The position numbers and the translations under genes are program-made. Below are positions 10,331 through 40,284 of a DNA stretch of 43,895 nucleotides, in pieces (positions within the stretch are counted from its first letter, which is position 1; each line of letters begins with the position of its first letter). The stretch is from contig CAZVSO010000001.1 in assembly GCA_964629425.1 (NCBI GenBank), forward strand, positions 1 to 43,895, in the 5' to 3' direction. A model generated the notes under the pieces. The model ran no database searches and was not told the DNA's origin. It saw nothing but the letters and a program-made list of their open reading frames with translations. The stretch is from an uncultured Gemmatimonadaceae bacterium (lineage in GTDB: Bacteria > Gemmatimonadota > Gemmatimonadetes > Gemmatimonadales > GWC2-71-9).

Positions 10331-10346
10331 TTCAGCCGTTTTTCAG
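10331..10346 (+). promoter_or_regulatory. TTCAG-N6-TTCAG direct repeat, candidate response-regulator operator upstream of USP1
   Basis: TTCAGCCGTTTTTCAG, two pentamers phased at 11 bp, ending 48 nt before ATG 10395. The USP2 site has the same architecture and a similar distance (46 nt). Confidence 0.45.
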
Positions 10347-10394
10347 ACGATCAGCATGAACTTGCCGCAAGCTCGAACGAGCGAGTGTGCGCTC

Positions 10395-11324
10395 ATGTCT
10401 CACAGGGCGATCGTGGCAGGGGTCGACAACTCCCCCGCGTCGGGGCGAGCGGCGGCGGTAGCGTACCGGATCGCCGCAGCGGCGGGCGTCCCGTGCCAGC
10501 TGATCCACGCCGTTCCCCGCACCGGCCCCGCGCGGATCGTCGTCCCTGGGCGGCCGCCGGCGCCCGAGGTGTGGCAGGAGGCCCGGCGCGAGCTAGGGAG
10601 CCTCCTGAACGGTCACGTTCCGCCGGCGGTGCTCGAGCGTCTCGAGGTCCTGGTCGGGCGGGCGGGGGTCATCCTGGCCGACGCCGCACGGCGCGTGAAC
10701 GCGGAGCTCGTGGTCCTCGGAGGAAAGCCCCACGGTGCCGTGGCCCGCGGGCTCGGTGGAAGCACGGCGCAGTACCTGGTGCGGACGCTGGATGTCCCAG
10801 TGCTCGTCACCGGTCCCACCGACCGGCCCATGAGCCGGGTGCTGGTCGCCGTGGACTTGTCGTACGCTTCGCGGCCTACGCTGCAGGCGGCGCGGCGCCT
10901 GGCGGATCGGCTTGGGGCCCGGCTGCGGGTGCTGCACGTGGTCGAGCCAACTCGGTCTCCGGCGGGCGCGGCGCGTAGCGCGGATCCGGAGGCGCATGCT
11001 CGGACCGCTGCGAAGATCCTGCGTCGCCTGGTGGAGGCGGAGCCTGGGGTCGGCGGCGCGGAGCCGGTGGTGCGGCAGGGGCCGGCGGCCGAGGAGATCG
11101 CGGCCGAGGCGGCCTCCTGGGGGGCGGACGTGATCGTGATGGGGTCGCACGGCAAGGGCTGGGTGGACCGCCTGCTGGTGGGGAGTGTGACCGAGCGGTT
11201 GCTGGCGGCGCTACCGACGGCGCTGCTGGTGGTTCCGGTGTACCCCGCGCGCCATGATCGGGCCGCCCGGCCCGGCCGCAAGCGCCACACGACGAGGAGG
11301 AGGGAGCCCTATGCGAGTCGCTGA
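10395..11324 (+). CDS. Universal stress protein, tandem UspA domains (USP1)
   Basis: Two Usp repeats (IVAGVDNSPAS...VVLGGKPHG...VPVLV and VLVAVDLSYAS...VIVMGSHGKGWVDRLLVGSVTERLL...LLVVP). The upstream part of track ORF 9957 is low-complexity and not protein-like. Confidence 0.85.
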   Translation: MSHRAIVAGVDNSPASGRAAAVAYRIAAAAGVPCQLIHAVPRTGPARIVVPGRPPAPEVWQEARRELGSLLNGHVPPAVLERLEVLVGRAGVILADAARRVNAELVVLGGKPHGAVARGLGGSTAQYLVRTLDVPVLVTGPTDRPMSRVLVAVDLSYASRPTLQAARRLADRLGARLRVLHVVEPTRSPAGAARSADPEAHARTAAKILRRLVEAEPGVGGAEPVVRQGPAAEEIAAEAASWGADVIVMGSHGKGWVDRLLVGSVTERLLAALPTALLVVPVYPARHDRAARPGRKRHTTRRREPYASR

Positions 11325-11712
11325 GCTCATGAAGACCGACCTCAAGACCGTTCGGCCGGACGAGACGGTGGCCGATGCGGTGACTACGCTCGCCGATGCC
11401 CATGTCTCGGCGCTGCCGGTCGTGGACCCACAGGGGCGGCTCATCGGGGTGCTTTCGACCAGCGACGTGTTGGCCGCCACGGCGGAGGCCGCCGGTCCCG
11501 CGGAGCGGGAGCGGGTGTTCGAGGAGACCCGGGTCAGCGAGATAATGACCACGCGGTCTTTGACCATCGACGCGGAGGCGGACGTCACCGACGCCGCGCG
11601 CCAGATGCTGTACCTCGAGGTGCACCGGCTGTTCGTGGAGCAGGGGGGCCGGCTGGTCGGCGTCCTGTCGCAAACCGACATCGTGGGGGCGGTGGCGACG
11701 GCGAAGATCTGA
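11311..11712 (+). CDS. CBS-pair domain protein (CBS1)
   Basis: 133 aa with two CBS motifs (VADAVTTLADAHVSALPVVD..GRLIGVLSTSDV and VTDAARQMLYLEVHRLFVEQGGRLVGVLSQTDIV). AGGAGGAGGGAG lies upstream of the ATG. The gene overlaps the USP1 stop. Confidence 0.85.
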   Translation: MRVAELMKTDLKTVRPDETVADAVTTLADAHVSALPVVDPQGRLIGVLSTSDVLAATAEAAGPAERERVFEETRVSEIMTTRSLTIDAEADVTDAARQMLYLEVHRLFVEQGGRLVGVLSQTDIVGAVATAKI

Positions 11713-11718
11713 AGTGCC

Positions 11719-12225
11719 CTACCTCCGGCGCACCACCCGCCAGCCACCCATCTGGGTACCGGAGGTCCGCTCCACCCAGGTCGTGAAGCTGCCCGCGACC
11801 GTGTCGGCCCGCACTCGTCCGTCGAATCGAGTCACGAGCCTCGTCCCGGTCTCGGGGTCGGCGTAGGGCGCGAGCATCCCGGACACGCGGTCGCCCTCGA
11901 CGTGCACGAAGCTGATGGTCAGCACTTGCGGCTGGACGCGCGGTGGTCCGCCCGGGTCGCCCTCGGGCCAGGGCCTGAGCTGCCGGCCCCACCCGACCGG
12001 AATCATCACGACGTCACCGTAGGCGGTGTCGCCCCGCGCCGTGAGGGTGAACGAGATGCTCCCGCTGCGGCCAGTGGCGGCGCTGCTGTACTCGCCCACC
12101 CACTCCCCGACGAGCGGAGTGAGGTCGGACGCCGGGCCCTCGACGGGAACCGGTGCCGGGGTGGAGGCGCACGCCCCCAGGATGGCGGCCAGGGCGATGG
12201 CTCCAGGACGAACGTAGGATCGCAT
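11719..12225 (-). CDS. Hypothetical lipoprotein
   Basis: N-terminus MRSYVRPGAIALAAILGAC has a signal peptide and a lipobox (LGAC). Codon usage is consistent with coding. I recognise no family. Confidence 0.55.
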   Translation of the reverse strand: MRSYVRPGAIALAAILGACASTPAPVPVEGPASDLTPLVGEWVGEYSSAATGRSGSISFTLTARGDTAYGDVVMIPVGWGRQLRPWPEGDPGGPPRVQPQVLTISFVHVEGDRVSGMLAPYADPETGTRLVTRFDGRVRADTVAGSFTTWVERTSGTQMGGWRVVRRR

Positions 12226-12366
12226 GCGTCACTCTCCTCGGCTGCGGCGGAACGCAGTCGCCGCGCCTGCTGATTCTCGCCCGTCGGGCGTGGTGCTTCG
12301 TGGAATTCAGGCTGAAGAACGGTTCACTCTGGACGGAGGCCGGGGCTGCCGTTACCGTACCGGCCC

Positions 12367-12972: not shown

Positions 12973-13671
12973 CTAGCGCTGGACCGTCAGCTCGTCCTGG
13001 ATGCGCGACACTCCCGGGATGGCCTCGGCCGCCCGCTCGACCTCCAGCCGCTCCGCCAGCGAGCGGACGTGCCCGCGGAGGACCACCGTCTCGCGCCGCA
13101 CCTCGACCCGGATGTGCCGGCCGTGCGTCTGCGCCTCGTGGCGCAGCGCGGCTTCCACGCGACCCCGGACGCTCTCGTCGGGCGGCGCGGCGCCTGCCTC
13201 GACCGTGATGCGATTGCTCACCGCCCGGACGCCCCGGACGCGCTGGATCACTTCCTCGGCGGCCGTCCGCTCCGCGGGCCGCTCGACCGCACCCTCGAGC
13301 GTTACGCCGCCGTTCGCCACCCGCGCCGCGACCCGGTCGCGGGGCACGAAGACGTCCCACGCGAGCGCGTGCGCGACCGCCCGGCCCAACTGCGCGTCGG
13401 TCCGCTCGTCCGCCGGGGGCAGCACGACGGTCGTCTCATTGACCACCGCCTGAATCCCGGGTACGCGCCGCGCGGCGCGCTCGAACGCGAGCCGTTCCGG
13501 GTAGCTCCGCACGGTGCCGCGAAGGGTGGCCACGTAGTCGGTCACGTCGAGCAGAATCCCCTGGGGGTCGAGGCACGGCTCCCACGTGAGCTGCTCCCAG
13601 ACCGCGCGCTCGAGCTCCCGCTGCGTGTTGGCGGCCTCCGTCTCCGACAGCCAGATCTGAATGCTCGTCAT
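12973..13671 (-). CDS. BON domain protein (three BON repeats, OsmY-like, no obvious signal peptide)
   Basis: A repeated pattern is seen three times: V..G.VTL.G.V.S..ER..AE.AA..VPGV..V.N.L.V. Confidence 0.85.
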   Translation of the reverse strand: MTSIQIWLSETEAANTQRELERAVWEQLTWEPCLDPQGILLDVTDYVATLRGTVRSYPERLAFERAARRVPGIQAVVNETTVVLPPADERTDAQLGRAVAHALAWDVFVPRDRVAARVANGGVTLEGAVERPAERTAAEEVIQRVRGVRAVSNRITVEAGAAPPDESVRGRVEAALRHEAQTHGRHIRVEVRRETVVLRGHVRSLAERLEVERAAEAIPGVSRIQDELTVQR

Positions 13672-13737: not shown

Positions 13738-13753
13738 GTGAAGGCCGTGTGAA
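13738..13753 (-). promoter_or_regulatory. TTCAC-N6-TTCAC direct repeat (read on minus strand), candidate operator in the BON/TetR divergent region
   Basis: Plus strand reads GTGAAGGCCGTGTGAA, an identical 16-mer to 25098..25113. It lies 66 nt upstream of the BON start and 99 nt upstream of the TetR start. Confidence 0.45.
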
Positions 13754-13852
13754 TCGCGCGCGAAGAACCCTTCACAGCGGCGCCGGCACCATTGACGGCG
13801 TTTACCAGAAGTTCAATTTTCTAACGTCAGTTCACTTCCGGAGCAGGCGCCG

Positions 13853-21412: not shown

Positions 21413-22431
21413 AGGCCGCCGTTTACCACGGGCCCGGGCGTGCGCTCGACGTGACCGAGGTCCCGAGCCCCGAGCCGGGTCCCGGGGAAGCGCTCATCCG
21501 GGTCGCGGCGTGCGGGCTGTGCCATACCGACCTTCACTACCTCGATCACGGCGTCAAGCCGTTCAAGGCGCCGCCCCTCATCCTGGGACACGAGGCCGCG
21601 GGCACGGTGGCTGGATTGGGCGACGGGGCGATCGGCGCCGCCGTCGGCGAGCGGGTACTGATCCCCTCGGTGCTCTCCTGCGGCCGCTGTCGCTACTGCC
21701 GGCTGGGGCGGGAGAACCTGTGCGATTCGCTCACGATGCTGGGGAACAACATCGACGGCGCGTTCGCGGAGCTGGTTGTGGTACCGGCCCGAGAGCTCGT
21801 GCGCCTGCCGGACTCGATCCCGCTGGAGCTCGCCTGCGTGATCGCGGACGCGTTATCCACCCCCTATCACGCCGTGAAGCGCCGGGGCCGGGTGCAGGCG
21901 GGGGACCGGGTGGTTGTGGTGGGATGTGGTGGGGTCGGCCTGAATGTCGTGCAGTGCGCCGCGATGGCCGGCGCGCTGGTCGTGGCGATCGACTTGAACG
22001 ACGCGCGGCTCGAGCTGGCCACGGCGCTCGGGGCGCTGCACACGGTGAATCCGCAGACCGTCGAGCGGGTCGACCGGCGCGTGCGCGAGCTCACCGGCGG
22101 GGGGGCCGACGTGGCGTTCGAGGCCGTTGGCAGTCCCAAGACCATCGACCTCGCCTTCGGGCTGTTGCGGCGGGGCGGCCGGCTGTGCGTGATCGGCTAT
22201 TCCGCCGAGCCGGCCTCGATCTCGGCGGCCAGGCTGATGTACTACGAGCTGGAGGTGGTGGGGAGCCTGGGGTGCGGGGCGGGGGAGTACCCGGAGATCA
22301 TCGCCCTCGTCGAAGCGGGGTTCCTGCGGCTCGAGCCCATCGTGAGCGGCACCCTGCCGCTCGTGGAGATCAATGTCGGTTTGGACCGGCTGCGACGCGG
22401 TGAAGGAGTGCGGTGGGTCGTGACGCCGTGA
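21409..22431 (+). CDS. Zinc-dependent alcohol dehydrogenase (MDR family; candidate 6-hydroxycyclohex-1-ene-1-carbonyl-CoA dehydrogenase)
   Basis: CGLCHTDLH, GHEAAGTV, structural zinc site CGRCRYCRLGRENLC, and the GCGGVGL Rossmann motif. Confidence 0.9.
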   Translation: MKAAVYHGPGRALDVTEVPSPEPGPGEALIRVAACGLCHTDLHYLDHGVKPFKAPPLILGHEAAGTVAGLGDGAIGAAVGERVLIPSVLSCGRCRYCRLGRENLCDSLTMLGNNIDGAFAELVVVPARELVRLPDSIPLELACVIADALSTPYHAVKRRGRVQAGDRVVVVGCGGVGLNVVQCAAMAGALVVAIDLNDARLELATALGALHTVNPQTVERVDRRVRELTGGGADVAFEAVGSPKTIDLAFGLLRRGGRLCVIGYSAEPASISAARLMYYELEVVGSLGCGAGEYPEIIALVEAGFLRLEPIVSGTLPLVEINVGLDRLRRGEGVRWVVTP

Positions 22432-22880
22432 GCGACGACCCGTTCCAGCGCTTCGAGGCCGAGCACCAGGAGGCGCTCGGTCAGCTGGACCGTCTCGAGG
22501 TGGCGGCGCGTGGGCTCCGCGCGCGAGCGGACCACGGCGCCCAGTTCGAAGTCGCGCGCGCGGTGCACCAGTTCCTCATCGGGGCGGTCCGGGCCCACAA
22601 CGACCGCGAGGAGCGAGCGCTGTTCCCGCTCCTTGGCGACGAGGCGCCCACCGGCTTGTTCGTCGAGGAGCACGGGACGCTGCGGGGACTGGAGCGGGAG
22701 CTGGACGCGGCCCTCCAGGCAGCGGACGCCGAGCGCAGCGCAGCGGCTGCGCTGGCGCTGGTCGATCTGCTGCGGGCACACATCGCCCGCGAGGACGTCG
22801 TCCTGTTCCCGGTGGCGAGGGCGAGGCTGGGAGACGTGGGGTTGCGGGAGCTTGCGCGGCGATTGGACGGCACAGGATAG
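22413..22880 (+). CDS. Hemerythrin-like (HHE cation-binding) domain protein
   Basis: Four-helix pattern with FEAEHQE, HNDREERALFPLL, EEHG and HIAREDVVLFP. The start is uncertain (GTG 22413 or GTG 22428). Confidence 0.7.
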   Translation: MGRDAVSDDPFQRFEAEHQEALGQLDRLEVAARGLRARADHGAQFEVARAVHQFLIGAVRAHNDREERALFPLLGDEAPTGLFVEEHGTLRGLERELDAALQAADAERSAAAALALVDLLRAHIAREDVVLFPVARARLGDVGLRELARRLDGTG

Positions 22881-22900
22881 CGGCGCGCGTACCGGGGCGA

Positions 22901-27663: not shown

Positions 27664-28293
27664 CGAGTGGCAACGTACGCGCTGCGGGACGACGCCGGGG
27701 CCATGGGGGTGCTGGTCGACGACCTGGCCGCCGTCGTCCGGCGAGTATCCGGCGGGGGCGGGCCGGCGGTCGTGATCGGGGAGTCGTTCGGGGGCGCCGT
27801 GGCGCTCAGCTTTGCGCTCGCCCATCCGTCGCTCGTGGCCGCGCTCGTCGTGCTCAACTCGTTTCCGCGGTTCTTGCCCCAGGGACGCCTGGACCTCGCC
27901 CTCTGGGCGCTGCGCGCCATGCCCTGGAACGCGATGGGCCTGGTGCGGCGCCTGACCGCCTTCCGGCTCCACTCGACGTACACGCACCATACAGAGATCC
28001 GGCGCTTCCTGGATCTGATGGCCGACACCACCCGGGACGGATATCTCGGCCGCCTCCGGATGCTGAGGGACTACGACGTGCGCGAGCGATTGCGGGAGAT
28101 CCGCGTGCCCACGCTGTTTCTCGCCGCCGGGCGCGACCATCTGGTGCCTTCCGTGGAGCAGGCCCGTTACATGGCCGCCCGAGTGCCCGGCGCGAGCATG
28201 CGGACGCTTCCGGGCCACGGGCACATCTGCCTTGTCGCGCCGGACGTCGACCTGGAGCGCATCCTCGCCGAATGGCGGCCGCCGGGCAGCTGA
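27568..28293 (+). CDS. Alpha/beta-fold hydrolase
   Basis: PPLVFVPGMDGTG oxyanion region, nucleophile elbow GESFGGA, and C-terminal GHGH. GTG 27568 is proposed because the upstream part of ORF 27421 is antisense to the TM region of the acyltransferase. Confidence 0.7.
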   Translation: MTGEGPPLVFVPGMDGTGRLFYRQVPLLAGRHRVATYALRDDAGAMGVLVDDLAAVVRRVSGGGGPAVVIGESFGGAVALSFALAHPSLVAALVVLNSFPRFLPQGRLDLALWALRAMPWNAMGLVRRLTAFRLHSTYTHHTEIRRFLDLMADTTRDGYLGRLRMLRDYDVRERLREIRVPTLFLAAGRDHLVPSVEQARYMAARVPGASMRTLPGHGHICLVAPDVDLERILAEWRPPGS

Positions 28294-28378: not shown

Positions 28379-28441
28379 GTGAAACGGGAGTGAAGGGCGC
28401 ATGAGGTGAAGGCGTTCACCCGTGCCTCAGCGCGGCTTCAC
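28379..28441. promoter_or_regulatory. Composite cluster of GTGAA/TTCAC pentamers upstream of archease
   Basis: GTGAA at 28379, 28390 (11-bp phasing) and 28406, with a further copy at 28337 outside this span. TTCAC at 28415 and 28437 (22-bp phasing). The last element starts 30 nt before ATG 28467. The TTCAS-N17-TTCAS geometry and distance match those upstream of the response regulator at 40258. Confidence 0.4.
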
Positions 28442-28466: not shown

Positions 28467-29006
28467 ATGAATGCCTCCTTCGAAGTCCTCGAGCATACCG
28501 CCGAGGTGAAGCTGCGCGTGCGCGGGCCGTCGCTGGGAGCGCTGGCGGCGGAGGCGGGTCGTGCGCTCGCCCGGATCGAGCTGGGCGACGCAGCGCCCCC
28601 GGCCAGCGGGGGGTGGCGGCGCGTGGAGCTGAAATCTCGGGACCGTGACGCGCTGCTGGTCGACTGGCTGAACGAGCTCATCTATCTGGCCGAGGCTGAG
28701 CGGTGGGTCGGGGTGGAGTTCCTGGTGGACTCGGCGAGCGATACCGCGCTGACGATGCTCGCCCGGGGCGTGCCGGTCGCCGAGGCGCCCGCCCGAGTCA
28801 AGGCCGCGACGTTCCACGGCCTTCACGTCGCCGACCGGCCCGATGGTCTCGAGGCCGAGATCTTTGGGGTGCCATCGAGTGGGCGCGTTTCAAGGAGATC
28901 GTGCGCGAGCTGCCCGAGGTGGGCGAGGCGGTGGTCATCGCAGGCGCGTGAGGAAGGGCCACTAGTGGAACCGGAGGGGTCAGCGAGATGGCACACAAGC
29001 AGGTGA
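28467..29006 (+). CDS. Archease (RtcB-type ligase/methyltransferase accessory protein) with aberrant C-terminal extension
   Basis: MNASFEVLEHTAEVKLRVRG...LLVDWLNELIYL...VKAATFHGLHV...LEAEI matches archease end to end. The last ~50 aa are Arg/Ser-rich and run through a duplicated intergenic segment. Confidence 0.7.
   Translation: MNASFEVLEHTAEVKLRVRGPSLGALAAEAGRALARIELGDAAPPASGGWRRVELKSRDRDALLVDWLNELIYLAEAERWVGVEFLVDSASDTALTMLARGVPVAEAPARVKAATFHGLHVADRPDGLEAEIFGVPSSGRVSRRSCASCPRWARRWSSQAREEGPLVEPEGSARWHTSR
28953..29002 (+). repeat. Copy 1 of the duplicated HPF-CSD stop / SD / groEL start junction
   Basis: GAAGGGCCACTAG + 8 nt + GAGGGGTCAGCGAG + ATGGCACACAAGCAG. Compare with 31911..31951. Confidence 0.7.
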
Positions 29007-30199
29007 CGTTCCACCGAGGCGGGCCTCCTCAGCGAGGAGGTGTAAACAGGCCGGCGGAGCCGGCGGCACCGGGGATCCCCCTCCGTCTCACCGGCCTGCT
29101 GCGCCGCGGCCCGGACATCGTCTCGTGCTATCTCCGGCTCGAGCCCGAGGACCGCCAGGGCAAGCGGTACCTGCTGGAGCTGAAGGAGGCCGTGTCCGGG
29201 GTCAAGGAGACGCTGGCACGGCTCGCGCGCGAGCCGTGCCAGGGCGTCGAGCGGGACTTGGAGCGCATCATCACCTACGCCGCCCAAGTCGCCAACCTGC
29301 CTCGCACTCGCGGGGTCGCGATTTTCGCCTGCGGCGCGCTGAAGCTGTTCCAGGCGGTCCCGCTGCCGCGGGTCACCCGCACCCGCCTCAGGCTCGACTT
29401 GGTTGCCCACCTGCAGGAGCTGGCGGAGGTACAGCGGGAGTTCGGGACCGTCATCGCCGTGGTTCTCGATCGCGCGCATGCGCGCTTCTTCGAGGTGTCG
29501 GCGCTCGGGGCCGGGGAGCTGCCCTGCATGCGCCCGCCGGCCATGCGGGGCGGCAAGTTCCACGGCGATCCGGAGGGCGCCCCCGGCTGGGGAGAGGCGG
29601 ACTACCATCGCCGGATTCGGGAGGAGCGGCATCGTCACTATGCTGCCGTGGCGCGACAGCTCGAACGCCTCGACGGTCGCGCGGGCGCTGCCCAGCTGTT
29701 CCTGGCCGGGCCGGGACCGGTGGCCACGGAGTTCGGGCGATTCCTCCCACCGGCGCTGGCGGGACAGGTCGTCGGCACGGCACGACTGAACCCGACCGAG
29801 GTCACTCCGGCCGCGGTCTATGCGGCCGTGCTGGCGGCCCGGGCGCCCCAGGAGGCGGCCGCCGAGCGAGCGCTGGTCGCGGCGCTGGAGGAGGGGCTGG
29901 GCACGGGTTGGGCGGTGAACGGAGTCCGGCCCACGCTGGGCGCGCTGGCCCGCGGCCAGGTGCGTACCCTACTCTTGAGGCCCGACGTGAGCGGCGGGGG
30001 GTTCCGCTGCGGCGCCTCTGGCCCGCTGGCCCAGTCGCGCGCCGAGTGCCGCGGCGCGGGCGACGTGCTGCCGGTTTCCGATCTCGTAGGAGCGGCCATC
30101 GAGGACGCGCACCGGCAGGGCTCGAGCGTGAGCCTGATCCACCAGCCTGCCGAGGCGGCCCGGATCGAGGGGCTGGCGGCGCTGCTCCGGTTTCGCTGA
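28988..30199 (+). CDS. Bacterial eRF1/Pelota-like (baeRF-type) protein
   Basis: 403 aa. The C-terminal third resembles eRF1/Pelota domain 3 (WAVNGVRPTLGALARGQVRTLLLRPD ... Cys pair ... DLVGAAIEDAHRQGSSVSLI ... IEGLAALLRF). The N-terminus (IVSCYLRLEPED...) is like bacterial release-factor-like families. GGAGGGG SD upstream. Confidence 0.6.
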   Translation: MAHKQVTFHRGGPPQRGGVNRPAEPAAPGIPLRLTGLLRRGPDIVSCYLRLEPEDRQGKRYLLELKEAVSGVKETLARLAREPCQGVERDLERIITYAAQVANLPRTRGVAIFACGALKLFQAVPLPRVTRTRLRLDLVAHLQELAEVQREFGTVIAVVLDRAHARFFEVSALGAGELPCMRPPAMRGGKFHGDPEGAPGWGEADYHRRIREERHRHYAAVARQLERLDGRAGAAQLFLAGPGPVATEFGRFLPPALAGQVVGTARLNPTEVTPAAVYAAVLAARAPQEAAAERALVAALEEGLGTGWAVNGVRPTLGALARGQVRTLLLRPDVSGGGFRCGASGPLAQSRAECRGAGDVLPVSDLVGAAIEDAHRQGSSVSLIHQPAEAARIEGLAALLRFR

Positions 30200-30201: not shown

Positions 30202-30309
30202 GAGGCGATCGTCACCGATTTCGGCATCGCCAAGGCCGTGAGCGCCGCCGCCGGCGCCGGCGCCGCTGCGCACTCCGCCACCGCGACCATCCTGACGCTC
30301 CGCACCTGA
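30202..30309 (+). pseudogene. Possible relic of a Hanks-type Ser/Thr kinase (subdomain VII fragment only)
   Basis: The frame reads AIVTDFGIAKAVSAAAG...TILTLRT then stop. VTDFGIAKA is the kinase DFG/activation-loop signature. There is no upstream kinase body. Confidence 0.25.
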
Positions 30310-30321
30310 AGCACCGATGAA
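30306..30321. promoter_or_regulatory. Degenerate CTGAA-N6-ATGAA phased repeat upstream of the dodecin operon
   Basis: CTGAAGCACCGATGAA(AGC) resembles GTGAAGGCCGTGTGAA(AGC) at 25098. Orientation is opposite to the six best sites. A TTCATTCAC element lies at 30366..30374. Confidence 0.3.
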
Positions 30322-30432
30322 AGCCGGATGAGCCCAAGGGATGTTGTCCGAGAGCTCAGGCTGGCTTCATTCACGGCCACCGAGATTCAGGCGGTGAGTG
30401 GAGTCAGCACGCCGAATCCCGCGGAGGGCCCT

Positions 30433-30645: not shown

Positions 30646-31340
30646 TCACGGGCAACCTGCCGGACGGTCTGCCGCAGCCGGTCGTCATCCCGGCGCGCGC
30701 GGTGCGGCTCGAGGGAACGCTGACGCTGCCCGGTTACCCGAAGGGCGTCGTGTTGTTCGCTCACGGGAGCGGGAGCTCGCGCTTGAGCCCCCGCAACCGC
30801 TTCGTCAGCGACGTGCTGGTAGCGGCGAACATCGGGACGTTGCTCTTCGATCTGTTGTCGGCGGGGGAGGCTGCGGAGCGGGCGAATGTGTTCGACATCC
30901 CGCTTCTTGCCGAGCGTCTCAGTCTGGCGACCCAATGGGTGGCCGCCTCCCCCGCCACGACGGGGCTGCCCCTCGGCTACTTCGGGGCGAGCACCGGGGC
31001 GGCCGCCGCTCTGGTAGCAGCCGCAGGCACGGAGAGCAGGATCGGCGCCGTCGTCTCGCGTGGCGGCCGACCGGATCTCGCGGGCGACGCGCTGTCGCGC
31101 GTCACGGCTCCGACCCTCCTGATCGTCGGGGGGCTGGACGTGGGCGTTCTCGAGCTGAATCGCGATGCGCTGGCGCGCCTCCGGGGTGAGAAGCAGCTCG
31201 CGATCGTGCCGGGAGCTACCCACCTATTCGAGGAGCGAGGGGCGCTCGAGGAGGTTGCGCGACTCGCCGCCGGTTGGTTTGGGCGCTACCTGGGCGCGGG
31301 CGAGCCCGCCGTCGCGGCGCCGGCCGGTGTCACGGAGTAA
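30642..31340 (+). CDS. Dienelactone hydrolase-like alpha/beta hydrolase
   Basis: VVLFAHGSGSSRLSPRN, nucleophile elbow GASTGAAAAL, GATHLF. ATGA overlap with dodecin. Confidence 0.85.
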   Translation: MITGNLPDGLPQPVVIPARAVRLEGTLTLPGYPKGVVLFAHGSGSSRLSPRNRFVSDVLVAANIGTLLFDLLSAGEAAERANVFDIPLLAERLSLATQWVAASPATTGLPLGYFGASTGAAAALVAAAGTESRIGAVVSRGGRPDLAGDALSRVTAPTLLIVGGLDVGVLELNRDALARLRGEKQLAIVPGATHLFEERGALEEVARLAAGWFGRYLGAGEPAVAAPAGVTE

Positions 31341-31377
31341 GAATCGGGAGACGGGAGAGGGGAGAGGGGGGAAGCCT

Positions 31378-31923
31378 GTGCAGCTGCCGCTGCAGATCGC
31401 GGTGCGGAACACCACGTTGAGCGAGCCCGCCAGGGAGTTGATCCGCAAGTATGCCGCGAAGCTCGAGCTGTTCTTCGATCGGATCACCGCGTGTCGGGTG
31501 ATGGTCGAGGTGCCGCAGCGCTACCCGGTGGGCGAGCCGGTCGTGTACAACGTTCGGCTGGACATCACGGTCCCGGGTGAGGAGATCGTGGTGAGTCGCC
31601 AGCCGCATGTCGAGCTCGAGACGGCGATCCAGGAATCGTTCGACGCCGCTGGCCGCCGGCTGCAGGACTACGTGCGGCGCCTGCGCGGCCAGGTCAAGCA
31701 CCACGAGGGTTCGGGCTACGGCGTCGTGGCGGAGCTGTTCCCGTACGAGGGCTACGGGTTCCTTCGGACGGGGGACGGTCGCGATATCTACTTCCACAGG
31801 AACAGCGTGCTCCGCGGGGCGTTCCACGCGCTCGAGGTGGGGACGGCGGTGCGGTTTGCCGAGGAGCCGGGAGAGCAGGGTCCGCAGGCGAGCACGGTGG
31901 TGGTGGCGAAGAAGGGCCACTAG
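31378..31923 (+). CDS. Ribosome hibernation factor (HPF/RaiA S30AE domain) fused to a C-terminal cold-shock (CSD/OB) domain
   Basis: The N-terminal ~105 aa are HPF-like ([31 protein letters not shown]...[19 protein letters not shown]). The C-terminus is [20 protein letters not shown]...[16 protein letters not shown] start is preceded by a GGAGAGGGGGG purine tract. Confidence 0.8.
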
Positions 31924-31951
31924 GAGGGTCGGCGCCATGGCACACAAGCAG
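31911..31951 (+). repeat. Copy 2 (native context) of the HPF-CSD stop / SD / groEL start junction
   Basis: GAAGGGCCACTAG + GAGGGTCGGCGCC + ATGGCACACAAGCAG. The 13-mer encodes the KGH-stop of the HPF-CSD gene and the 15-mer encodes MAHKQ of GroEL. Confidence 0.7.
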
Positions 31952-33556
31952 ATCCTGTTCCGCGCGGCCGCGCGGGAGAAGGTGCTCCGCGGAGCCACGG
32001 CGCTGGCCGACGCGGTGCGCATCACCCTGGGCCCGAAGTCGAAGTGCGTGCTGATCGAGCAAAAGTGGGGCGCGCCGCTGGTATGCAACGACGGCGTCAC
32101 CATCGCGAAGGAGGTGGACCTCAAGGACGCCGGGGAGAACCTCGGCGCCCAGGTGCTGCGCGAGGCGGCGGCGCGCACGGGAGAGGCCGTGGGCGACGGC
32201 ACCACGACGGCGACGTTGCTGGCGCACGCCATCTTCGCCGAAGGGCTGCGGAACATCGCGGCGGGGGCGAGCGCGATTGACCTGAAGCGAGGGCTCGATC
32301 GCGGCGTGCGGGTGGCGGTCGAGGCGCTGCGGCGTCTCTCCCGGCCCGTGAAGAGCCGGCGCGAGAAGGCGCAGGTTGGCACGATCTCGGCGCACAACGA
32401 TACCACCATCGGCGAGCTCGTCGCCGACGCGGTGGAGCGGGTGGGCGCCGAGGGCGTCATCACCGTGGAGGAGGCGAAGGGTACCGAGACCGCGCTCGAA
32501 GTGGTCGAGGGGCTGCAGTTCGACCGGGGCTACCTGTCCCCCTACTTCGTAACAGATCCGGCCAAGATGGAAGCGGTGCTCGAGGACCCGATGATCCTGC
32601 TCCATGAGAAGCGGATCGGCGCGATGAAGGATCTGCTCCCATTGCTGGAGCAGGTGGCCAAGGCCGGCCACTCGCTGCTCATCGTGGCGGAGGATGTCGA
32701 GGGCGAGGCGCTCGCCACCCTGGTGGTCAACAAGCTCCGGGGCACACTCGCGTCCGTAGCCGTGAAGGCGCCGGGGTTCGGCGACCGTCGCAAGGCGATT
32801 CTCGAGGACGTGGCGATCCTGGCGGGCGGCCGCTTGATCGCCGAGGAAGTCGGGCTGCGGCTGGAGCACGTGACACCCGCCGAGCTGGGCTCGGCGAAGC
32901 GGGTGGTCGTGGGTCGTGAGACGACGACGATCATCGGCGGCGCCGGCCAGAAAGACGCGATCACCGGACGCTGCGCCGACCTCCGCACGCAGATCGAGAA
33001 GGCGACGTCCGACTACGACCGCGAGAAACTCGAGGAGCGGCTGGCCAAGCTGGCGGGTGGTGTGGCGGTGATCCGGGTCGGCGCGCCGTCGGAGACGGAG
33101 CTGAAGAGCCGCCGCGAGGCGTTCGAGGACGCGATCAACGCCACCAAGGCGGCGATCGCCGAAGGGATCGTGCCCGGTGGCGGGCTCGCCCTGCTGCGGG
33201 CGATCGATGCCGTCGAGCGCGAGGCCGGGCGCTGCGCGGGGGACGAAGCCACGGGGATGCGTATCCTGCGCCGGGCCCTGGAAACGCCCACCCGGCAGAT
33301 CGCGGAGAACTCGGCCGCCGATGGCGGTGTCGTCGTCGAGCGGATGCGCTCCGGCAGCGGCAACTTCGGCTTCGACGCCGCGCGCGGCGAGTACGTGGAC
33401 CTCGTCGAGGCGGGGATCATCGATCCAACCAAGGTCGTGCGCGTCGCCCTGGAGAACGCCGTGTCCGTGGCGAGCGTGTTGCTCCTGACGGAAGCCACCC
33501 TCACCGAGTTGCCGGAGCCGAAGGCCGAGGCGCGGGCCACCGCCGAAGAGCTGTGA
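31937..33556 (+). CDS. groEL: Chaperonin GroEL (Cpn60) paralog without adjacent GroES
   Basis: [45 protein letters not shown] and GIVPGGG all match GroEL. The C-terminus lacks the GGM repeats. Confidence 0.95.
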
Positions 33557-33577: not shown

Positions 33578-34513
33578 TCAGCCGTGCACCAGCAGGTCCG
33601 CCAGCGAGCGATTCTCGTGCAGCCGGCTGATGACCTCGGCGAGCAACGACGCGAGGGTGACGACGCGCAGCGGGAGGGCGCCGGTGGCCGGGAGCGCTAC
33701 ACTGTCGGTCACCGTGATCTGGCGGAGCGGCAGGGCGGCGAGACGCTCGACCGCACCGTCCACCAGCAGGGCGTGGGTCGCGATCACCGTGAAGTCGGGC
33801 CGGCAGCCTGCCGCGAGCAGCGCCGCCACCGCCGCGGCTATCGTGCCGCCGGTGCTGATCATGTCGTCCACGATGATCGGGGAGCGGTCCCGGACGTCTC
33901 CGGTGATGCCCCGCACCGCGACTTCCGTCCCGTCCACCCGCGTCTTGTGGACCAGCGCCACCGGCAGGTCGAACAGCCGCCCATACCGGTCCGCCAGTCG
34001 GGCGGCGCCGAGGTCCGGTCCAACGACCACCCCGTCTTCCGCCACGGCCTGCCCCGCTTCGGCGAGCGCCGCCACCGCGCTGAGGTGCTCCAGGGGACAG
34101 GCGAAGAACCCCTCCAGCGCCGACGAGTGGAGGTCCACGGCCACCACGCGGTCGATGTGGCACGTGGCCAGGATATCGGCCACGAGCCGGGCGCCGACCG
34201 GCTCCCGCCCGCCCGCGCGGCGATCCTGGCGCGCGTAGCCGAAGTACGGCACGACCGCGGTGAGCCGGTCGGCCCCGGCACGGCGGCACGCGTCGGCGAG
34301 GAGCAACAGCTCGAGGAAGTTGCTCTCGAACGGCGGCGCCGTGGACTGGAGCAGATAGACGTCGTGCGCTCGGACGCTGTCGCGCACCGCGACGTGGAGC
34401 TCGCGGTCCGGAAAGCGGTGCAGGCTCACGGTCCCGAGCTGCACGCCCAGGCGGCCGGCTACCGCTTCGGCGAGGACCGGGTTCGCGGAGCCCGTGACCA
34501 GGGTGAGGAGCAT
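33578..34513 (-). CDS. prs: Ribose-phosphate pyrophosphokinase (PRPP synthetase)
   Basis: 311 aa: FPDRELHV, VVPYFGYARQDRR, VAVDLHS, PIIVDDMISTGGTI. The rest of track ORF 33578..36352 is antisense shadow of polX. Confidence 0.93.
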   Translation of the reverse strand: MLLTLVTGSANPVLAEAVAGRLGVQLGTVSLHRFPDRELHVAVRDSVRAHDVYLLQSTAPPFESNFLELLLLADACRRAGADRLTAVVPYFGYARQDRRAGGREPVGARLVADILATCHIDRVVAVDLHSSALEGFFACPLEHLSAVAALAEAGQAVAEDGVVVGPDLGAARLADRYGRLFDLPVALVHKTRVDGTEVAVRGITGDVRDRSPIIVDDMISTGGTIAAAVAALLAAGCRPDFTVIATHALLVDGAVERLAALPLRQITVTDSVALPATGALPLRVVTLASLLAEVISRLHENRSLADLLVHG

Positions 34514-34555
34514 CGTGCTGACCGGGTAATCAGCGAGGGTCGTCCGCAAGGAACC

Positions 34556-34571
34556 GTGAAACCACGGTGAA
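34556..34571 (-). promoter_or_regulatory. TTCAC-N6-TTCAC direct repeat, candidate operator in the prs/polX divergent region
   Basis: Plus strand reads GTGAAACCACGGTGAA, 42 nt upstream of the prs start. A third GTGAA lies at 34615, just before the polX ATG. Confidence 0.45.
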
Positions 34572-36370: not shown

Positions 36371-36409
36371 CCGTCGCTGCGGTGTTCTGAAAGATCCCCT
36401 AAAGAGACG

Positions 36410-36425
36410 TTCACGGACGCTTCAA
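36410..36425 (+). promoter_or_regulatory. TTCAC-N6-TTCAA direct repeat, candidate operator upstream of USP2
   Basis: TTCACGGACGCTTCAA ends 46 nt before GTG 36472. The geometry mirrors the USP1 site. Confidence 0.45.
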
Positions 36426-36471: not shown

Positions 36472-37413
36472 GTGTTCCAACGCCAGCCGATCGTCGTGGG
36501 CGTGGACGGGTCGCCGGAATCGACTCGGGCCGCGCGCCTCGCCTGGACGCTGTCGCAGGCTACGAGAGGTCCCTGCCACCTCGTGCACGGCATCGGGTAT
36601 CCGGTTGCCGACTCGACCTTCGGGATCGCCCCGGCGTCGTTGTCCCCGGTGTTCGAGCAGCTGCTCGCCGCCGCACGGAGCGACCTCGAGCGCGCGCTCA
36701 CCGGCACCATCCCGGCGGACGTGCTGCGCGGGCTGGACGTGCGGATCGGGCGGCCCGCGCGGGTGCTGGCGCAGGCGGCGGCGGAATACCGGGCGGGGAT
36801 GGTCGTCGTGGGCGGCGAGCCGCATGGCGCGATGGCGCGCGCGCTCGGCGGCAGTACCGCTCACGGGCTCACCCGCGTGCTGGAGGTCCCGGTGCTGGTG
36901 ACGAGCCGCCTGCCGCGCCCCATCACTCGCATCCTGGTGGCCGTGGATCTGTCGGAAGCGGCCCGGGTGACCCTGGCCGCCGCCGGCGCGCTCAGTGAAG
37001 CGCTCGGTGCGCGGCTGCGGGCGTTACACGTGGTGGAGCCGCTGATCTTGCCGCCGGGCGTCGCGCTGACAATCGCCCCCGAGGAGCTGTACCGGCGGCA
37101 GGAAGCGGCGTTCGAGGAACTCCTGGCGGGCGAGGCGCGGGTCGCGCCGAGCGACCGGGTGACGCGCCAGGGGCCGGCGGTGGACATGGTCGCCGAGGAG
37201 GCAGCCACCTGGGAGGCGGATCTCCTGGTAGTGGGCTCGCACGGCAAGGGCTGGGTGGATCGGCTGATGCTGGGGAGCACGACCGAGCGGCTGCTCGGCC
37301 TCCTACCGACGTCGCTCCTGGTGGTGCCGGCGTGGCTGCGGCCGTCGCGGCTCAAGAACGGGGCACGCCGGAGGGACCGTGCCGTGCACGGGCGTCGGGT
37401 GGCAGTCACGTGA
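36472..37413 (+). CDS. Universal stress protein, tandem UspA domains (USP2, paralog of USP1)
   Basis: IVVGVDGSPES... and ILVAVDLSEAA...LLVVGSHGKGWVDRLMLGSTTERLL...LLVVP. It can be aligned with USP1 at the DNA level in the C-terminal region. Confidence 0.85.
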   Translation: MFQRQPIVVGVDGSPESTRAARLAWTLSQATRGPCHLVHGIGYPVADSTFGIAPASLSPVFEQLLAAARSDLERALTGTIPADVLRGLDVRIGRPARVLAQAAAEYRAGMVVVGGEPHGAMARALGGSTAHGLTRVLEVPVLVTSRLPRPITRILVAVDLSEAARVTLAAAGALSEALGARLRALHVVEPLILPPGVALTIAPEELYRRQEAAFEELLAGEARVAPSDRVTRQGPAVDMVAEEAATWEADLLVVGSHGKGWVDRLMLGSTTERLLGLLPTSLLVVPAWLRPSRLKNGARRRDRAVHGRRVAVT

Positions 37414-37425
37414 AGGAGAACGGTG

Positions 37426-37827
37426 ATGAGAGTCGCTGACCTGATGCGGACGGACCTCACGACGATCAGCGTGGACGGGACGGTGGCAGACGCCGTGGCG
37501 ATTCTGGCGGACACTCGGCTCTCCGCGCTGCCCGTCGTGGACCGATGGGGACGGGCGGTCGGCGTCCTGTCCACGCGGGAGATCCTCGAAGCCGAGCACC
37601 GGTGCAACGGTCCGGCGGCACGGGATCGGCTGTTCGAGCGCACGCGAGCGCTCGAGCTCATGGCCCCGTGGCCCGTGACCATCACGCCCGAGCCGGACGT
37701 GACCGATGCGGCTCGCCAGATGCTGTATCTCGGCGAGCAGCGGCTGTTCGTGGAGGACCAGGGACAGCTGGTGGGCGTCATCTCGCAGACCGACATCGTC
37801 GGGGCCGTGGCGACCGCGCGGATCTAG
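37426..37827 (+). CDS. CBS-pair domain protein (CBS2, paralog of CBS1)
   Basis: MRVADLMRTDLTTI...VADAVAILADTRLSALPVVD...VTDAARQMLYLGEQRLFVEDQGQLVGVISQTDIVGAVATARI. AAGGAGA SD 6 nt upstream of ATG 37426. Confidence 0.85.
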   Translation: MRVADLMRTDLTTISVDGTVADAVAILADTRLSALPVVDRWGRAVGVLSTREILEAEHRCNGPAARDRLFERTRALELMAPWPVTITPEPDVTDAARQMLYLGEQRLFVEDQGQLVGVISQTDIVGAVATARI

Positions 37828-38036: not shown

Positions 38037-38873
38037 TCACACCGGGACCGTAAGCACCGCGCAGGGCGCCCGGTGCAGCACCCGGGGTCCCACGCCGCTT
38101 GCGTCGGGAGGAGCCACCTCGCCCGGGTGGTAGCCGATGGCGATGACGTCCATCCCCTCGACGCGCGCCAGCTTCAGGATCTCTCCCGCTGCATCGCCCT
38201 GTCGGACCAGGGCGGGGGCTGCGGCGACGGCGCCGGCCGGGCCGGCGTCGCCGGGCGGGACGGGGAGGTGGTGTGGGGCCCCAGCGGCGGCGGCGCCTCG
38301 CGGCTCGACATGCAACGGGAACAGCTCGCTGCCGAAGAGCCGGGCGAACGCCGTCGCGCGCTCGAGCACGCCGTCGGACGCCGGGCTCGAGCCCAGCGCC
38401 GCGAGCACCCGGCCCCAGGTGCGCTGGCCGAACGGGACGATCAGGCACGGCAGCCGGGCCCGGCGCACCGTCGCGGTCAGGGTGCGACCTGCCGGCCGGC
38501 GCTCGAACTCGCCGACCGGTTGCCGACCCAGCACGAGCAGGTCGGCCCCTTCGAGCTCGGCCCAGCGGGCGAGCTCGACGGCAGGCAGGCCGAACCGCAC
38601 CATCGGCTGCGGGCGGGCCACGGTGGTGACGGAATTGATCAGGCTCTCCAGCTCCCGTACCGCCGCCGTCCCCGCTTCGTCGGCAAACGAACCCGCACGC
38701 AAGCGGCGGTGCCCCTCCACCAGGCTGGGGTCGAGGTACTCCCACGGGTTCTCGACGATGCGGAGCACGGCGAGGTGGGCGTCGGCCGCCGCGGCGATCT
38801 GCGCCGCGACGCGTAACGCGTGCATCCCCGCGGGCGACCGGTCGACGGCCGCGATGATCCTGGTGAACTGCAT
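38037..38873 (-). CDS. Universal stress protein, tandem UspA domains (USP3)
   Basis: IIAAVDRSPAGMHAL...LLVLGRQP... and RVLAALGSSPAS...VIAIGYHPGE...VLHRAPCAVLTVP. Confidence 0.8.
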   Translation of the reverse strand: MQFTRIIAAVDRSPAGMHALRVAAQIAAAADAHLAVLRIVENPWEYLDPSLVEGHRRLRAGSFADEAGTAAVRELESLINSVTTVARPQPMVRFGLPAVELARWAELEGADLLVLGRQPVGEFERRPAGRTLTATVRRARLPCLIVPFGQRTWGRVLAALGSSPASDGVLERATAFARLFGSELFPLHVEPRGAAAAGAPHHLPVPPGDAGPAGAVAAAPALVRQGDAAGEILKLARVEGMDVIAIGYHPGEVAPPDASGVGPRVLHRAPCAVLTVPV

Positions 38874-38911
38874 CGCATCCCCCTCTGTTGCCGCAGCTTA
38901 TCGCGGTTCGC

Positions 38912-38927
38912 CTGAAGCCACCCTGAA
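38912..38927 (-). promoter_or_regulatory. TTCAG-N6-TTCAG direct repeat, candidate operator in the USP3/GAF-kinase divergent region
   Basis: Plus strand reads CTGAAGCCACCCTGAA, 38 nt upstream of the USP3 start codon. Confidence 0.45.
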
Positions 38928-39023
38928 GCGAGCGTGAGAACTGGGGCAACCAGTCGGCCTAGCCACCCGCCGGGGCGCGCCATTACGTTGCCGGGGCGCC
39001 GGGAGCCGGCCGGTTGAGCGGAG

Positions 39024-40250
39024 GTGGGTGGAGTGAGCCACGATGAGGCCGCGCGGGTACAGGGGCGGTTCGAGCGCCTGCTGTCGGCAGGCGCCGCGAT
39101 CCTGTCCGAGCATTCACTCGAGCAGGTGCTGCAGCGGGTCGCGGATCTGGCACGGGAGGTTCTGGACGCGCGCTACTCGGCGCTCGGCGTCCTCGACGAA
39201 GGCGGGACGTCGCTCGCGGAGTTCGTGACGTCTGGTCTGAGCGCGGCGGAGCGGGTGCGCATCGGCGCGCTCCCCCAGGGCCGCGGCCTGCTGGGCCTGG
39301 TGATTCGCGAGGGCAAGCCGATCCGCACCCGGGATATCGGCGCCCACCCGCAGCGCTACGGCTTCCCTCCCCACCACCCGCCGATGATGTCCTTTCTCGG
39401 CGTGCCCATCGTCGCCCGGGGTCGGGTGTTCGGGAATCTCTATCTCACCGACAAGGTGGCCGCCGCGGAGTTCTCCGAGGAAGATGAGCGCATCGCCGTG
39501 CTGCTGGCCGGGCAGGCTGCGCTCGCCGTGGAGAACGCCCGGCTCCTGGACGAGCTGCGCGCGCTGCAGCGGCAACGCGACCTGTTCTTCGCGATGATGA
39601 ACCACGAATTGCGGAACGCGCTCACCGGGGTGTACGGCTGGGCGGAGCGGGTCATCGGCGCCAAGTCGCCGGACGCGGCGGCCCGGGCCGGGCGCGAAGT
39701 CTACGAAACCGCCGAGCGGACCATCGGCCTGCTCAACAACCTGCTGGATCTCAGCCGCCTCGATGCCGGCAAGATGCGGCCCGTGTGGCAGGACGTGCAG
39801 CCGCGGCGGGCCGTCGAGCGGGCCATCACCGGCCTCCGGCCCAGCGCGGAGGCGAAGCGGGTCCGGATCGAGGAGCGCTACGGCGCGGCGGCGACGGCCC
39901 GGCTGCGGACGGACGCCATGCGCCTCGAGCAGATCCTGGTCAACCTGCTGTCGAACGCCGTGCGGCACAGCCCGGAGGGGTCGGCGATCGAGATCTGCGT
40001 CGAGGCCGCCTCGCCGGGGGTGCACTTCCATGTGAGGGACCGGGGTCCCGGGATCCCGATAGAGCAGCAGGCGCTCATCTTCGAGCCGTTCGAGCGCGTC
40101 GATCCGCATGCCGGGCTGGGGTCCGGGCTGGGCCTGGCGGTGTCGCGGCGCCTGGCCGGGCTGCTCGGCGGCCGGCTGACCGTGACCAGCGAGCCGGGCG
40201 AGGGCGCCCGGTTCACGCTCACGTTGCCGCCCGAGCCCCCGTCGACATGA
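39024..40250 (+). CDS. GAF-domain sensor histidine kinase (GAF + HisKA + HATPase_c)
   Basis: GAF: GALPQGRGLLGLV...GFPPHHPPMMSFLGVPI..GRVFGNLYLTDK. H-box MNHELRNALTGV. N/G boxes NLLSNAVRHSP, DRGPGIP, GLGSGLGLAVSRRL. No TM segments seen. Confidence 0.85.
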   Translation: MGGVSHDEAARVQGRFERLLSAGAAILSEHSLEQVLQRVADLAREVLDARYSALGVLDEGGTSLAEFVTSGLSAAERVRIGALPQGRGLLGLVIREGKPIRTRDIGAHPQRYGFPPHHPPMMSFLGVPIVARGRVFGNLYLTDKVAAAEFSEEDERIAVLLAGQAALAVENARLLDELRALQRQRDLFFAMMNHELRNALTGVYGWAERVIGAKSPDAAARAGREVYETAERTIGLLNNLLDLSRLDAGKMRPVWQDVQPRRAVERAITGLRPSAEAKRVRIEERYGAAATARLRTDAMRLEQILVNLLSNAVRHSPEGSAIEICVEAASPGVHFHVRDRGPGIPIEQQALIFEPFERVDPHAGLGSGLGLAVSRRLAGLLGGRLTVTSEPGEGARFTLTLPPEPPST

Positions 40251-40257
40251 AGGTTCC

Positions 40258-40284
40258 TTCAGGACTCCTTTATAGTCGGTTCAG
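40258..40284 (+). promoter_or_regulatory. TTCAG-N17-TTCAG (22-bp phasing) flanking a TATAGT box upstream of the response regulator
   Basis: TTCAGGACTCCTTTATAGTCGGTTCAG lies in an AT-rich island. The second pentamer starts 28 nt before ATG 40308. The geometry matches 28415/28437 before archease. Confidence 0.35.

Follow-up and report, generated by a model that had tools for sequence, protein, structure and literature searches.

In a 43,895-bp stretch of DNA from an uncultured Gemmatimonadaceae bacterium (contig CAZVSO010000001.1; here called the window), direct repeats of the word TTCA, spaced one helical turn apart, recur upstream of genes for universal stress proteins (USPs), CBS and BON proteins, a phosphoribosyltransferase (PRTase) and other genes. 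We conclude that these phased repeats are probably the operator for PhoB-like class II activation by an OmpR/PhoB-family response regulator (RR), encoded at 40308-40994 of the window, and that they control a Dos-like hypoxia and stress regulon. The OmpR/PhoB direct-repeat operator is a known type, and the regulon would be a new, uncharacterised one of the OmpR family. The identity of the binding protein, activation as opposed to repression, the exact start sites and the signal are what we infer from the sequence.

A sequence check of the window confirmed all six primary sites listed by a first-pass annotation, in position and strand: USP1 (10331-46, forward strand, TTCAGCCGTTTTTCAG), USP2 (36410-25, forward strand, TTCACGGACGCTTCAA), USP3 (38912-27, reverse strand, TTCAGGGTGGCTTCAG), BON and PRTase (13738-53 and 25098-113, both reverse strand, with the identical 16-mer TTCACACGGCCTTCAC) and prs (34556-71, reverse strand, TTCACCGTGGTTTCAC). 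Two more exact copies were found on the reverse strand at 28379-94 and 30306-21. The repeats had been described as ending 38-66 nt before the start codon, which holds for the start codons checked. The gene names agree with Pfam for the three tandem USPs, BON, PRTase, prs, archease, baeRF and dodecin, and Pfam also identified two CBS proteins and an OmpR-type RR with a histidine kinase on each side.

The occurrence of the repeat was compared with chance on both strands of the window. TTCA-N7-TTCA gave eight matches, against a mean of 0.08 and a maximum of 1 in 100 dinucleotide-preserving shuffles, and with one mismatch 15 matches were obtained against 2.5 expected. The extra one-mismatch matches were mostly a third unit 11 bp upstream, at USP1, BON, USP3 and archease. 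Among start-to-start spacings from 4 to 44, 11 was the only one enriched for TTCA in the window (eight copies, against 0-3 elsewhere), in keeping with the earlier claim that recurrence at one helical turn is non-random. The identical BON and PRTase 16-mers have unrelated flanks, and no long repeat spans any site, the long repeats of the window being coding parts of a duplicated USP-CBS operon and not promoters. Since the flanks differ and no long repeat lies over a site, the repeats are not a dispersed element, a possibility that the first-pass annotation had raised against its own proposal.

The anatomy of the site was derived from 125 exact TTCA-N7-TTCA copies, taken from the window and from 80 related loci (1.15 Mb, all from around the RR gene) and cut to the 77 with a gene on the same strand within 150 nt. 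The conserved positions given here for these 77 sites played no part in their selection. A third unit was evident at -12 to -8 (C, then C or T, then T in 60/77, C in 50/77 and A in 47/77), and each unit was preceded by C. The site thus has three (c)TTCA units 11 bp apart, which therefore all lie on one face of the helix. Downstream of the units, A was present at +28 in 46 sites and T at +32 in 47, against a background of 16%, and a purine at +39 in 58, while the position of a -35 hexamer (+4 to +9) showed no conservation in the same 77 sites. The A at +28 and the T at +32 read as the A-11 and T-7 of a -10 element, with the start site 7 nt beyond.

Relative to this predicted start site the units begin at about -50, -39 and -28, and about 11 nt separate the end of the proximal unit from the -10 hexamer (nAnnnT), whose first T is not conserved except in the RR promoter. 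The distance from the predicted start site to the start codon peaked at 13-25 nt, with a median of 21. The distal unit is preceded, at 10 nt, by an inverted TGAAG (TGAAG-N4-CTTCA) in 89-100% of RR promoters and in about half of the sites. In the window the arrangement of units, -10 element and predicted start site fits the RR promoter and those of USP1, USP2, USP3, BON, PRTase, archease and prs. The 11-bp phasing of the original two-unit description was retained, but the full site comprises three units plus the upstream inverted TGAAG. The position of the array relative to the -10 element is fixed, as in a class II type operator, with A+28/T+32 in about 60% of the sites, which were chosen without regard to these bases (start sites being predicted).

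The candidate binder of the repeats (40308-40994, forward strand) has a receiver domain (PF00072, 1.6e-30) and a Trans_reg_C winged helix (PF00486, 6.1e-26), and its closest solved structures are PrrA, DrrD, MtrA, RegX3 and PhoP. Orthologues 81-92% identical to it were found in 80 species-level genomes, which come without exception from Gemmatimonadales or are metagenome-assembled genomes (MAGs) of Gemmatimonadota. Its promoter (40247-40307, forward strand) carries TTCAG at 40258 and 40280, a pair that had already been noted and is real, to which a middle unit, TTTAT at 40269, is now added; a -10 element, TAGAGT (40296-40301), precedes the ATG at 40308, whose A is the predicted start site. The inverted TGAAG of this promoter (40248-52, forward strand) includes the TGA stop codon of the gene for the upstream GAF-domain histidine kinase (GAF kinase).

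The arrangement is conserved. Of the 80 RR orthologues, about 70 are preceded by a site in sense orientation, mostly with the middle unit 39-40 nt before the ATG, and the aligned upstream regions are conserved solely at TGAAG, CTTCA, CTTTAG, GTTCA, TAnnnT and the ATG, with drifting spacers. In 55 loci anchored on the three-unit pattern the TA of the -10 element was present in 100% and its T in 98%. In three loci (L076, L077 and L080) the whole module, units and -10 element, lies about 35 nt further upstream and is intact. With the -10 element ending 6-7 nt short of the ATG, the predicted start of transcription in most of these loci falls on the ATG itself, so that the RR mRNA is predicted to be leaderless and the gene autoregulated.

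A separate feature of some of these promoters is an 8-codon open reading frame (ORF) directly before the RR gene in loci L053 and L055-L058. It encodes MKTLLAES, copies the RR N-terminus, lies at the predicted leaderless start and has a stop codon that overlaps the RR ATG (ATGA). It looks like a short tandem duplication that created an upstream ORF.

The genes for the GAF kinase, the RR and a second kinase (HK2) are syntenic in nearly all 80 loci, amid USP, CBS, hpt, PRTase and baeRF genes. In the 28 full-length loci, 47 of 136 sites fell within the 2 kb that contain the GAF kinase gene and the RR start, where the density of sites was highest. A motif in the conserved promoter of the regulator together with motif-bearing neighbours is the standard criterion of comparative genomics for assigning a regulator, and it argues, circumstantially but strongly, for this RR. 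HK2 (40991-42397, forward strand) is a CusS/CopS-like HAMP-HisKA-HATPase_c kinase that scores below the family cut-off. Its GTG start (40991-40994) overlaps the RR stop codon (GTGA), so that HK2 is probably co-transcribed with the RR, and translational coupling is suggested. In loci that lack HK2, the RR directly follows the GAF kinase.

The distribution of the motif was then determined in the 80 related loci, for which gene calls were crude (longest ORF, judged by GC3); some sites counted as coding really lie upstream of mis-extended ORFs, as does the prs site of the window. The loci contained 118 copies of the exact motif at spacing 11 and 127 at spacing 22, the latter count including the conserved RR promoters, against about 5-45 at other spacings. 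Of 126 exact copies in the loci and the window, 75% were intergenic, compared with about 18% of the DNA. Intergenic motif density in the loci was about 14-fold that of coding DNA, and the motif was oriented toward the downstream gene. A position weight matrix (PWM) of the three-unit site gave, at a score of at least 14, 323 intergenic, 68 coding and 12 shuffled-control hits. The comparison with shuffled and coding DNA and the positional bias that the first-pass annotation had proposed as checks thus came out in favour of the motif in related loci.

The genes that carry a site belong to particular families. A site was found for 50/61 USP, 21/30 CBS, 6/11 PRTase, 2/2 BON and 3/4 Hsp20 genes, and also for 7/19 multicopper oxidase, 4/7 ABC ATPase, 3/3 flavodoxin-like and 4/4 YgaP-like genes. 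Other families in the 80 loci were nearly free of it: P-type ATPase (0/43), COX2 (1/39), COX1 (0/33), globin (0/17), FtsX (0/12) and hpt (0/8). In the window itself, a scan with the three-unit PWM found no site in the nar operon (1-8 kb) or in the 14-23 kb block. This family specificity, together with the site-free nar operon and 14-23 kb block, indicates a regulon and not a housekeeping promoter. Conservation in related genomes, another of the proposed checks, was likewise observed, the motif being kept upstream of the same families in 80 species. The view that the repeat is an OmpR/PhoB-type operator, probably of the RR at 40308 with the motif in its own promoter, is therefore supported by the sites of about 70 of the 80 orthologues, the density peak, the family specificity and the fixed distance to the -10 element.

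The known operators closest to the TTCA array are the PHO boxes of PhoB and PhoP, with which it has in common an OmpR/PhoB winged-helix RR, 11-nt direct repeat units and a variable number of units. The receiver and Trans_reg_C domains, the 11-bp direct repeats, the fixed distance to the -10 element and the autoregulatory site of this operator type are all found here. In E. coli the PHO box unit is CTGTCAT, and the PhoB array stands in for a -35 element, with its end about 10-11 nt from the -10 element. The TTCA array shares this geometry in place of -35. In core sequence the nearest relative is the PHO box of Streptomyces coelicolor, which has 11-nt direct repeat units with a conserved core, GTTCACC, and a variable spacer (PMC4415409); TTCAC is nearly the same. 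The first-pass annotation had drawn this parallel and gave the Streptomyces core correctly (PMC4415409), but the organism belongs to Gemmatimonadota and the system is not Pho. The actinobacterial framing was wrong because the RR orthologues are all from Gemmatimonadales or Gemmatimonadota MAGs.

A Pho regulon was rejected on three grounds. The RR is not a PhoB equivalog, scoring 218.4 bits against a cut-off of 296.2 for TIGR02154 and 156 against 471 for NF007546; the kinases are haem-GAF (DosT-like) and CusS-like, not PhoR; and the targets are USP, CBS, BON, PRTase, Hsp20 and denitrification genes, not phosphate genes. The TTCA operator also differs from PHO boxes in its extra inverted TGAAG. 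A CusRS copper system was likewise rejected. The cztR_silR_copR and cztS_silS_copS models were the best for the RR and HK2, respectively, but both proteins fell below the cut-offs of these CusRS/CopRS models (229 vs 279 bits and 239 vs 292.6 bits), and the targets are mostly not metal genes, although 7 of the 19 multicopper oxidase genes have a site.

ArcA and TorR of E. coli also use direct repeats, in a 10-11-bp phase and with 2-5 units, and respond to redox state and anaerobic respiration; the tor box, CTGTTCATAT, contains the TTCA core. Phased OmpR-family direct repeats are shared with these systems, whereas the kinases differ (ArcB and TorS) and ArcA mostly represses. In this analysis no sequence-level orthology to either became apparent.

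The nature of the signal is suggested by the kinase encoded upstream of the RR. Pfam and a structure-database comparison identified this protein (39024-40250, forward strand) as a soluble GAF-HisKA-HATPase_c sensor kinase, with a GAF domain about 50% identical to the haem-binding GAF-A domain of Mycobacterium tuberculosis DosT (2vzw, E 1e-40) and to that of DevS/DosS (2w3d, 2y8h). By residues counted on the alignment, His118 (HHPPM) corresponds to His149 of DosS and Tyr140 (FGNLYLTDK) to Tyr171. In DosS these are the proximal haem ligand and the distal, ligand-discriminating residue, respectively (PMC4082495). With both the proximal His and the distal Tyr, the kinase has the features of a haem GAF-A sensor and putatively binds haem. 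A homology search with it returned close Gemmatimonadales relatives alone, and some of its orthologues are labelled 'NarL family sensor histidine kinase DevS' by JGI.

The system resembles DosS/DosT-DosR in its GAF-A-like haem sensor domain, in the two kinases that flank one RR and in the apparent autoregulation of the RR. The mycobacterial DosR regulon includes USPs, hspX, the CBS protein Rv2626c, narK2/narX and ctpF (in part from PMC4082495). The genes found here overlap strikingly with it, in several USPs, an Hsp20/alpha-crystallin, a CBS protein and a PRTase-domain protein, and nitrate reductase, narK and P-type ATPase genes lie nearby. On the other hand, the kinase contains a single GAF domain and, instead of HisKA_3, a HisKA transmitter (PF00512), the RR is of the OmpR type (Trans_reg_C) and not of the NarL/LuxR type, the operator is a direct repeat and not a palindrome, and the phylum is Gemmatimonadota. 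A DosR-box palindrome was rejected for lack of enrichment: the consensus GGGAC-N4-GTCCC, with at most one mismatch, gave six matches in the window against 4.5 expected, none of them in a promoter region. By sequence, then, the system appears Dos-like in sensor and regulon, and falls outside the Dos family at transmitter, RR and operator.

The setting of these genes is consistent with such an input. The window is a nitrate-respiration and hypoxia island (segments 1-7996, 22413-22880, 31165-31923 and 42402-43893) with narGHJI-narK, hemerythrin, globin, a P-type ATPase and an S30AE ribosome hibernation factor fused or adjacent to a cold-shock domain; it also encodes a 2-hydroxyacyl-CoA dehydratase with its activator. 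In the window, no motif immediately precedes the nar, hemerythrin, hibernation factor, globin and P-type ATPase genes. Low oxygen induces few genes in Gemmatimonas phototrophica, and a USP is one of them (PMC11406998). The stress regulon first proposed, linking USP, CBS, PRTase and BON genes, is supported, but a likely DosS/DosT-type haem-GAF input explains its stress and anaerobic content better than a generic stress label.

A mechanism can be proposed from these observations. The phosphorylated RR would bind the units head-to-tail across the -35 region and, like PhoB at PHO boxes, recruit RNA polymerase by class II activation. Phosphorylation of the RR is probably the work of the adjacent haem-GAF kinase, a DosS/DosT sensor homologue, and the membrane kinase HK2 may add to it. 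Given a haem-GAF kinase as input, low O2, NO, CO or redox stress would turn the regulon on. It would comprise the USPs, CBS proteins, BON, PRTase, prs and archease-baeRF and, in relatives, also Hsp20, multicopper oxidase, NosZ-like and cytochrome genes. By activating its own leaderless RR-HK2 transcript the RR would generate positive feedback.

Several points weigh against this interpretation. OmpR-type RRs are numerous in Gemmatimonadales genomes, and co-localisation and autoregulation are circumstantial grounds for an assignment. A site in forward orientation is rare at the GAF kinase gene itself in the 80 loci. Because the 80 species are relatives of one another, their family counts are not wholly independent, and the PWM was built from sites matching the pattern of the first-pass annotation, which makes the low-score hits partly circular. 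In the loci around the RR the flanks contain about one site per 7 kb, which would mean a very large regulon or an extended island, and strong sites without a downstream gene exist (23310 and 30321, both reverse strand). Finally, the arrays overlap the -35 position, which is also compatible with repression.

As to the identity of the binder, the main alternative is that a different OmpR/PhoB-type paralogue elsewhere in the genome, such as a true PhoB/PhoP or another stress RR, binds the sites and that the local RR is merely one of its targets. The likeness of the unit core to the Streptomyces PHO-box core GTTCACC (PMC4415409) would fit this, as would the good scores, below cut-off, of the RR against many OmpR-family models, and the local assignment rests on co-localisation and on the site in the RR's own promoter. 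That site, however, is kept in about 70 of 80 species, and in most loci the GAF kinase-RR operon lies amid motif-bearing USP and CBS genes; the targets include no pst, pho or other alternative-regulon genes, and the window has no other gene for a DNA-binding RR. We regard binding by such a paralogue as unlikely.

That the local RR acts instead as a repressor, occluding RNA polymerase with units at -50 to -24 and causing derepression when the kinase is off, is the main alternative as to mechanism and has a precedent in ArcA, an OmpR-family protein that represses through two to five direct repeats in 11-bp phase overlapping promoters. Such action appears rather improbable here. Promoters that depend on an activator typically look like these, with no -35 hexamer and a first -10 T that is unconserved outside the RR promoter. 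The strict distance from the proximal unit to the -10 element (A+28 and T+32 in about 60% of sites) suggests protein-polymerase contact over simple occlusion, and autoregulated two-component promoters are usually positive.

We also considered that the TTCA words might be promoter elements of an alternative (ECF or stress) sigma factor or of the Gemmatimonadota housekeeping sigma factor. The motif does keep a constant distance to a -10-like element and is common, at about one per 3-7 kb of the loci studied, and a literature search found nothing on Gemmatimonadota promoters or a promoter consensus. The start-to-start distances to the -10 element, however, are 27 (middle unit) and 16 (proximal unit), not the approximately 23 of sigma-70/ECF promoters, and a sigma -35 reading is thereby excluded by geometry. 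In addition, sigma recognition does not involve three or four tandem copies in strict 11-bp phase, and large families in the same loci are motif-free or nearly so (ATPase 0/43, COX 1/72, globin 0/17). The motif is also missing from the nar operon and from 19 kb of window sequence. No -35/-10 pair of the sigma-70 type was found in 36.3-40.4 kb. A general promoter element or alternative sigma was rejected on geometry and family specificity, and we consider it very unlikely. Chance, or what is left of a dispersed repeat or a duplication, which the identical 16-mers at 13738 and 25098 and the paralogous USP1-CBS and USP2-CBS operons might have suggested, is refuted to the point of being negligible by the shuffles (eight copies against 0.08), the unrelated flanks of these 16-mers, the start of the long repeats within coding regions and not in promoters, and the recurrence of the motif before the same gene families in 80 species while spacers diverge.

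With the RR as probable activator, a broader proposition is that Gemmatimonadales, and possibly the phylum, possess a rewired Dos system, in which a haem-GAF kinase and a membrane kinase act on an OmpR-type RR that controls a dormancy and hypoxia regulon through triple TTCA repeats and positively autoregulates its own leaderless transcript. The genes controlled (USPs, CBS, Hsp20, PRTase, hibernation and denitrification genes) would parallel the mycobacterial DosR regulon. We consider the case for this proposition evenly balanced. No paper linking DosS/DosT to Gemmatimonadota or describing the TTCA motif was found in the literature. If the proposition is true, the DosS/DosT sensor module also serves outside Actinobacteria, with another output domain and very similar persistence genes, an independent or domain-swapped route to oxygen-limited persistence that bears on the evolution of dormancy regulons and on the survival of soil bacteria in anoxic microsites. 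Gemmatimonadota are among the most abundant soil phyla and are poorly studied. For this soil phylum the analysis supplies a model of the motif, candidates for the regulator and for the signal (O2, NO, CO or redox) and target gene families, as well as a first sketch of putative activator-dependent promoters, in which the -35 element is absent, the -10 element weak and the leader short or missing.

The individual sites of the window were described with the three-unit PWM; all -10 positions and transcription start sites (TSS) are predictions. The USP1 operator of the tandem-USP/CBS operon (10320-10346, forward strand; PWM 28.5) has TTCCG at 10320 and TTCAG at 10331 and 10342, followed by a -10-like GAACTT (10358-63), a TSS at about 10370 and the ATG at 10395. 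The USP2-CBS operator (36399-36425, forward strand; PWM 24.4) consists of CTAAA, TTCAC and TTCAA, with a -10-like GATCTT at 36437-42 and a GTG start at 36472. The tandem-USP plus CBS operon occurs twice (10395-11712 and 36472-37827), with about 76% DNA identity over some stretches of the coding sequence; each copy has its own three-unit site, and the upstream DNA is otherwise unrelated. The USP3 operator (38912-38938, reverse strand; CTCAC, TTCAG, TTCAG; PWM 29.1) precedes the gene at 38037-38873, with a -10 element TAAGCT and a predicted 5' untranslated region (5'UTR) of 15 nt. This site is conserved in L081, a contig of a near-identical strain in which, of the window sites, only USP3, the RR and one further site are present. 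An exact look-up of the RR returned near-identical strains with a different downstream context.

The BON operator (13738-13764, reverse strand) has three units, TTCGC, TTCAC and TTCAC, upstream of the gene at 12973-13671, and its -10 element, TACAGT, lies one base downstream of the modal spacing. At the PRTase gene (24349-25041) the operator (25087-25113, reverse strand) has two TTCAC units and a degenerate CTTAG; the -10 element TATGCT (25076-71, reverse strand) is also off by one base in spacing, and the predicted 5'UTR is about 22 nt. The prs operator (34545-34571, reverse strand; gene 33578-34513) is similarly composed of TTCAC, TTCAC and a degenerate TTGCG, with a -10-like CTGATT and a short leader of about 8 nt.

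Before archease, where a related arrangement had been noted, the divergent spacer contains a back-to-back pair of three-unit operators (28379-28441; PWM 26.3 and 27.5). The forward array (28415/28426/28437) serves archease-baeRF, with a predicted TSS 2 nt before the ATG at 28467, and the reverse array (28405/28394/28383) faces a 473-aa gene (26803-28224). A second pair of arrays lies back to back by baeRF and dodecin (30306-30370). The copy at 30306 had been taken for a degenerate form before the dodecin operon; a forward array before the dodecin and hibernation-factor genes does exist (30344/30355/30366) and is weaker (PWM 18.4), but the 30306 copy itself is exact and belongs to a reverse-strand array (30332/30321/30310) that is among the best (PWM 27.5) and runs antisense into the 3' end of baeRF. 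The reverse-strand site at 30306-30332 may drive an antisense transcript or be part of a bidirectional operator.

An orphan three-unit site (TTCGC, CTCAC, TTCAA; PWM 20.3) is present at 23295-23321 on the reverse strand, with a -10 element AGTTTT and a predicted TSS at about 23271. No convincing ORF was found in the region downstream of it (22881-23270), and its product might be a small RNA or a small protein. A known RNA family was rejected as an explanation, the window having no Rfam match at the gathering threshold. Two degenerate sites listed earlier, before ZIP2 (24093) and in the hpt/BON spacer (12931), are doubtful; their PWM scores are weak (13.5 and 14.6, respectively) and they may be due to chance. 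A further repetition in the window concerns coding sequence: the first 12 or so codons (MAHKQ...) of baeRF (28977-29012) and of a Cpn60-like gene (31926-31961) are 81% identical in DNA.

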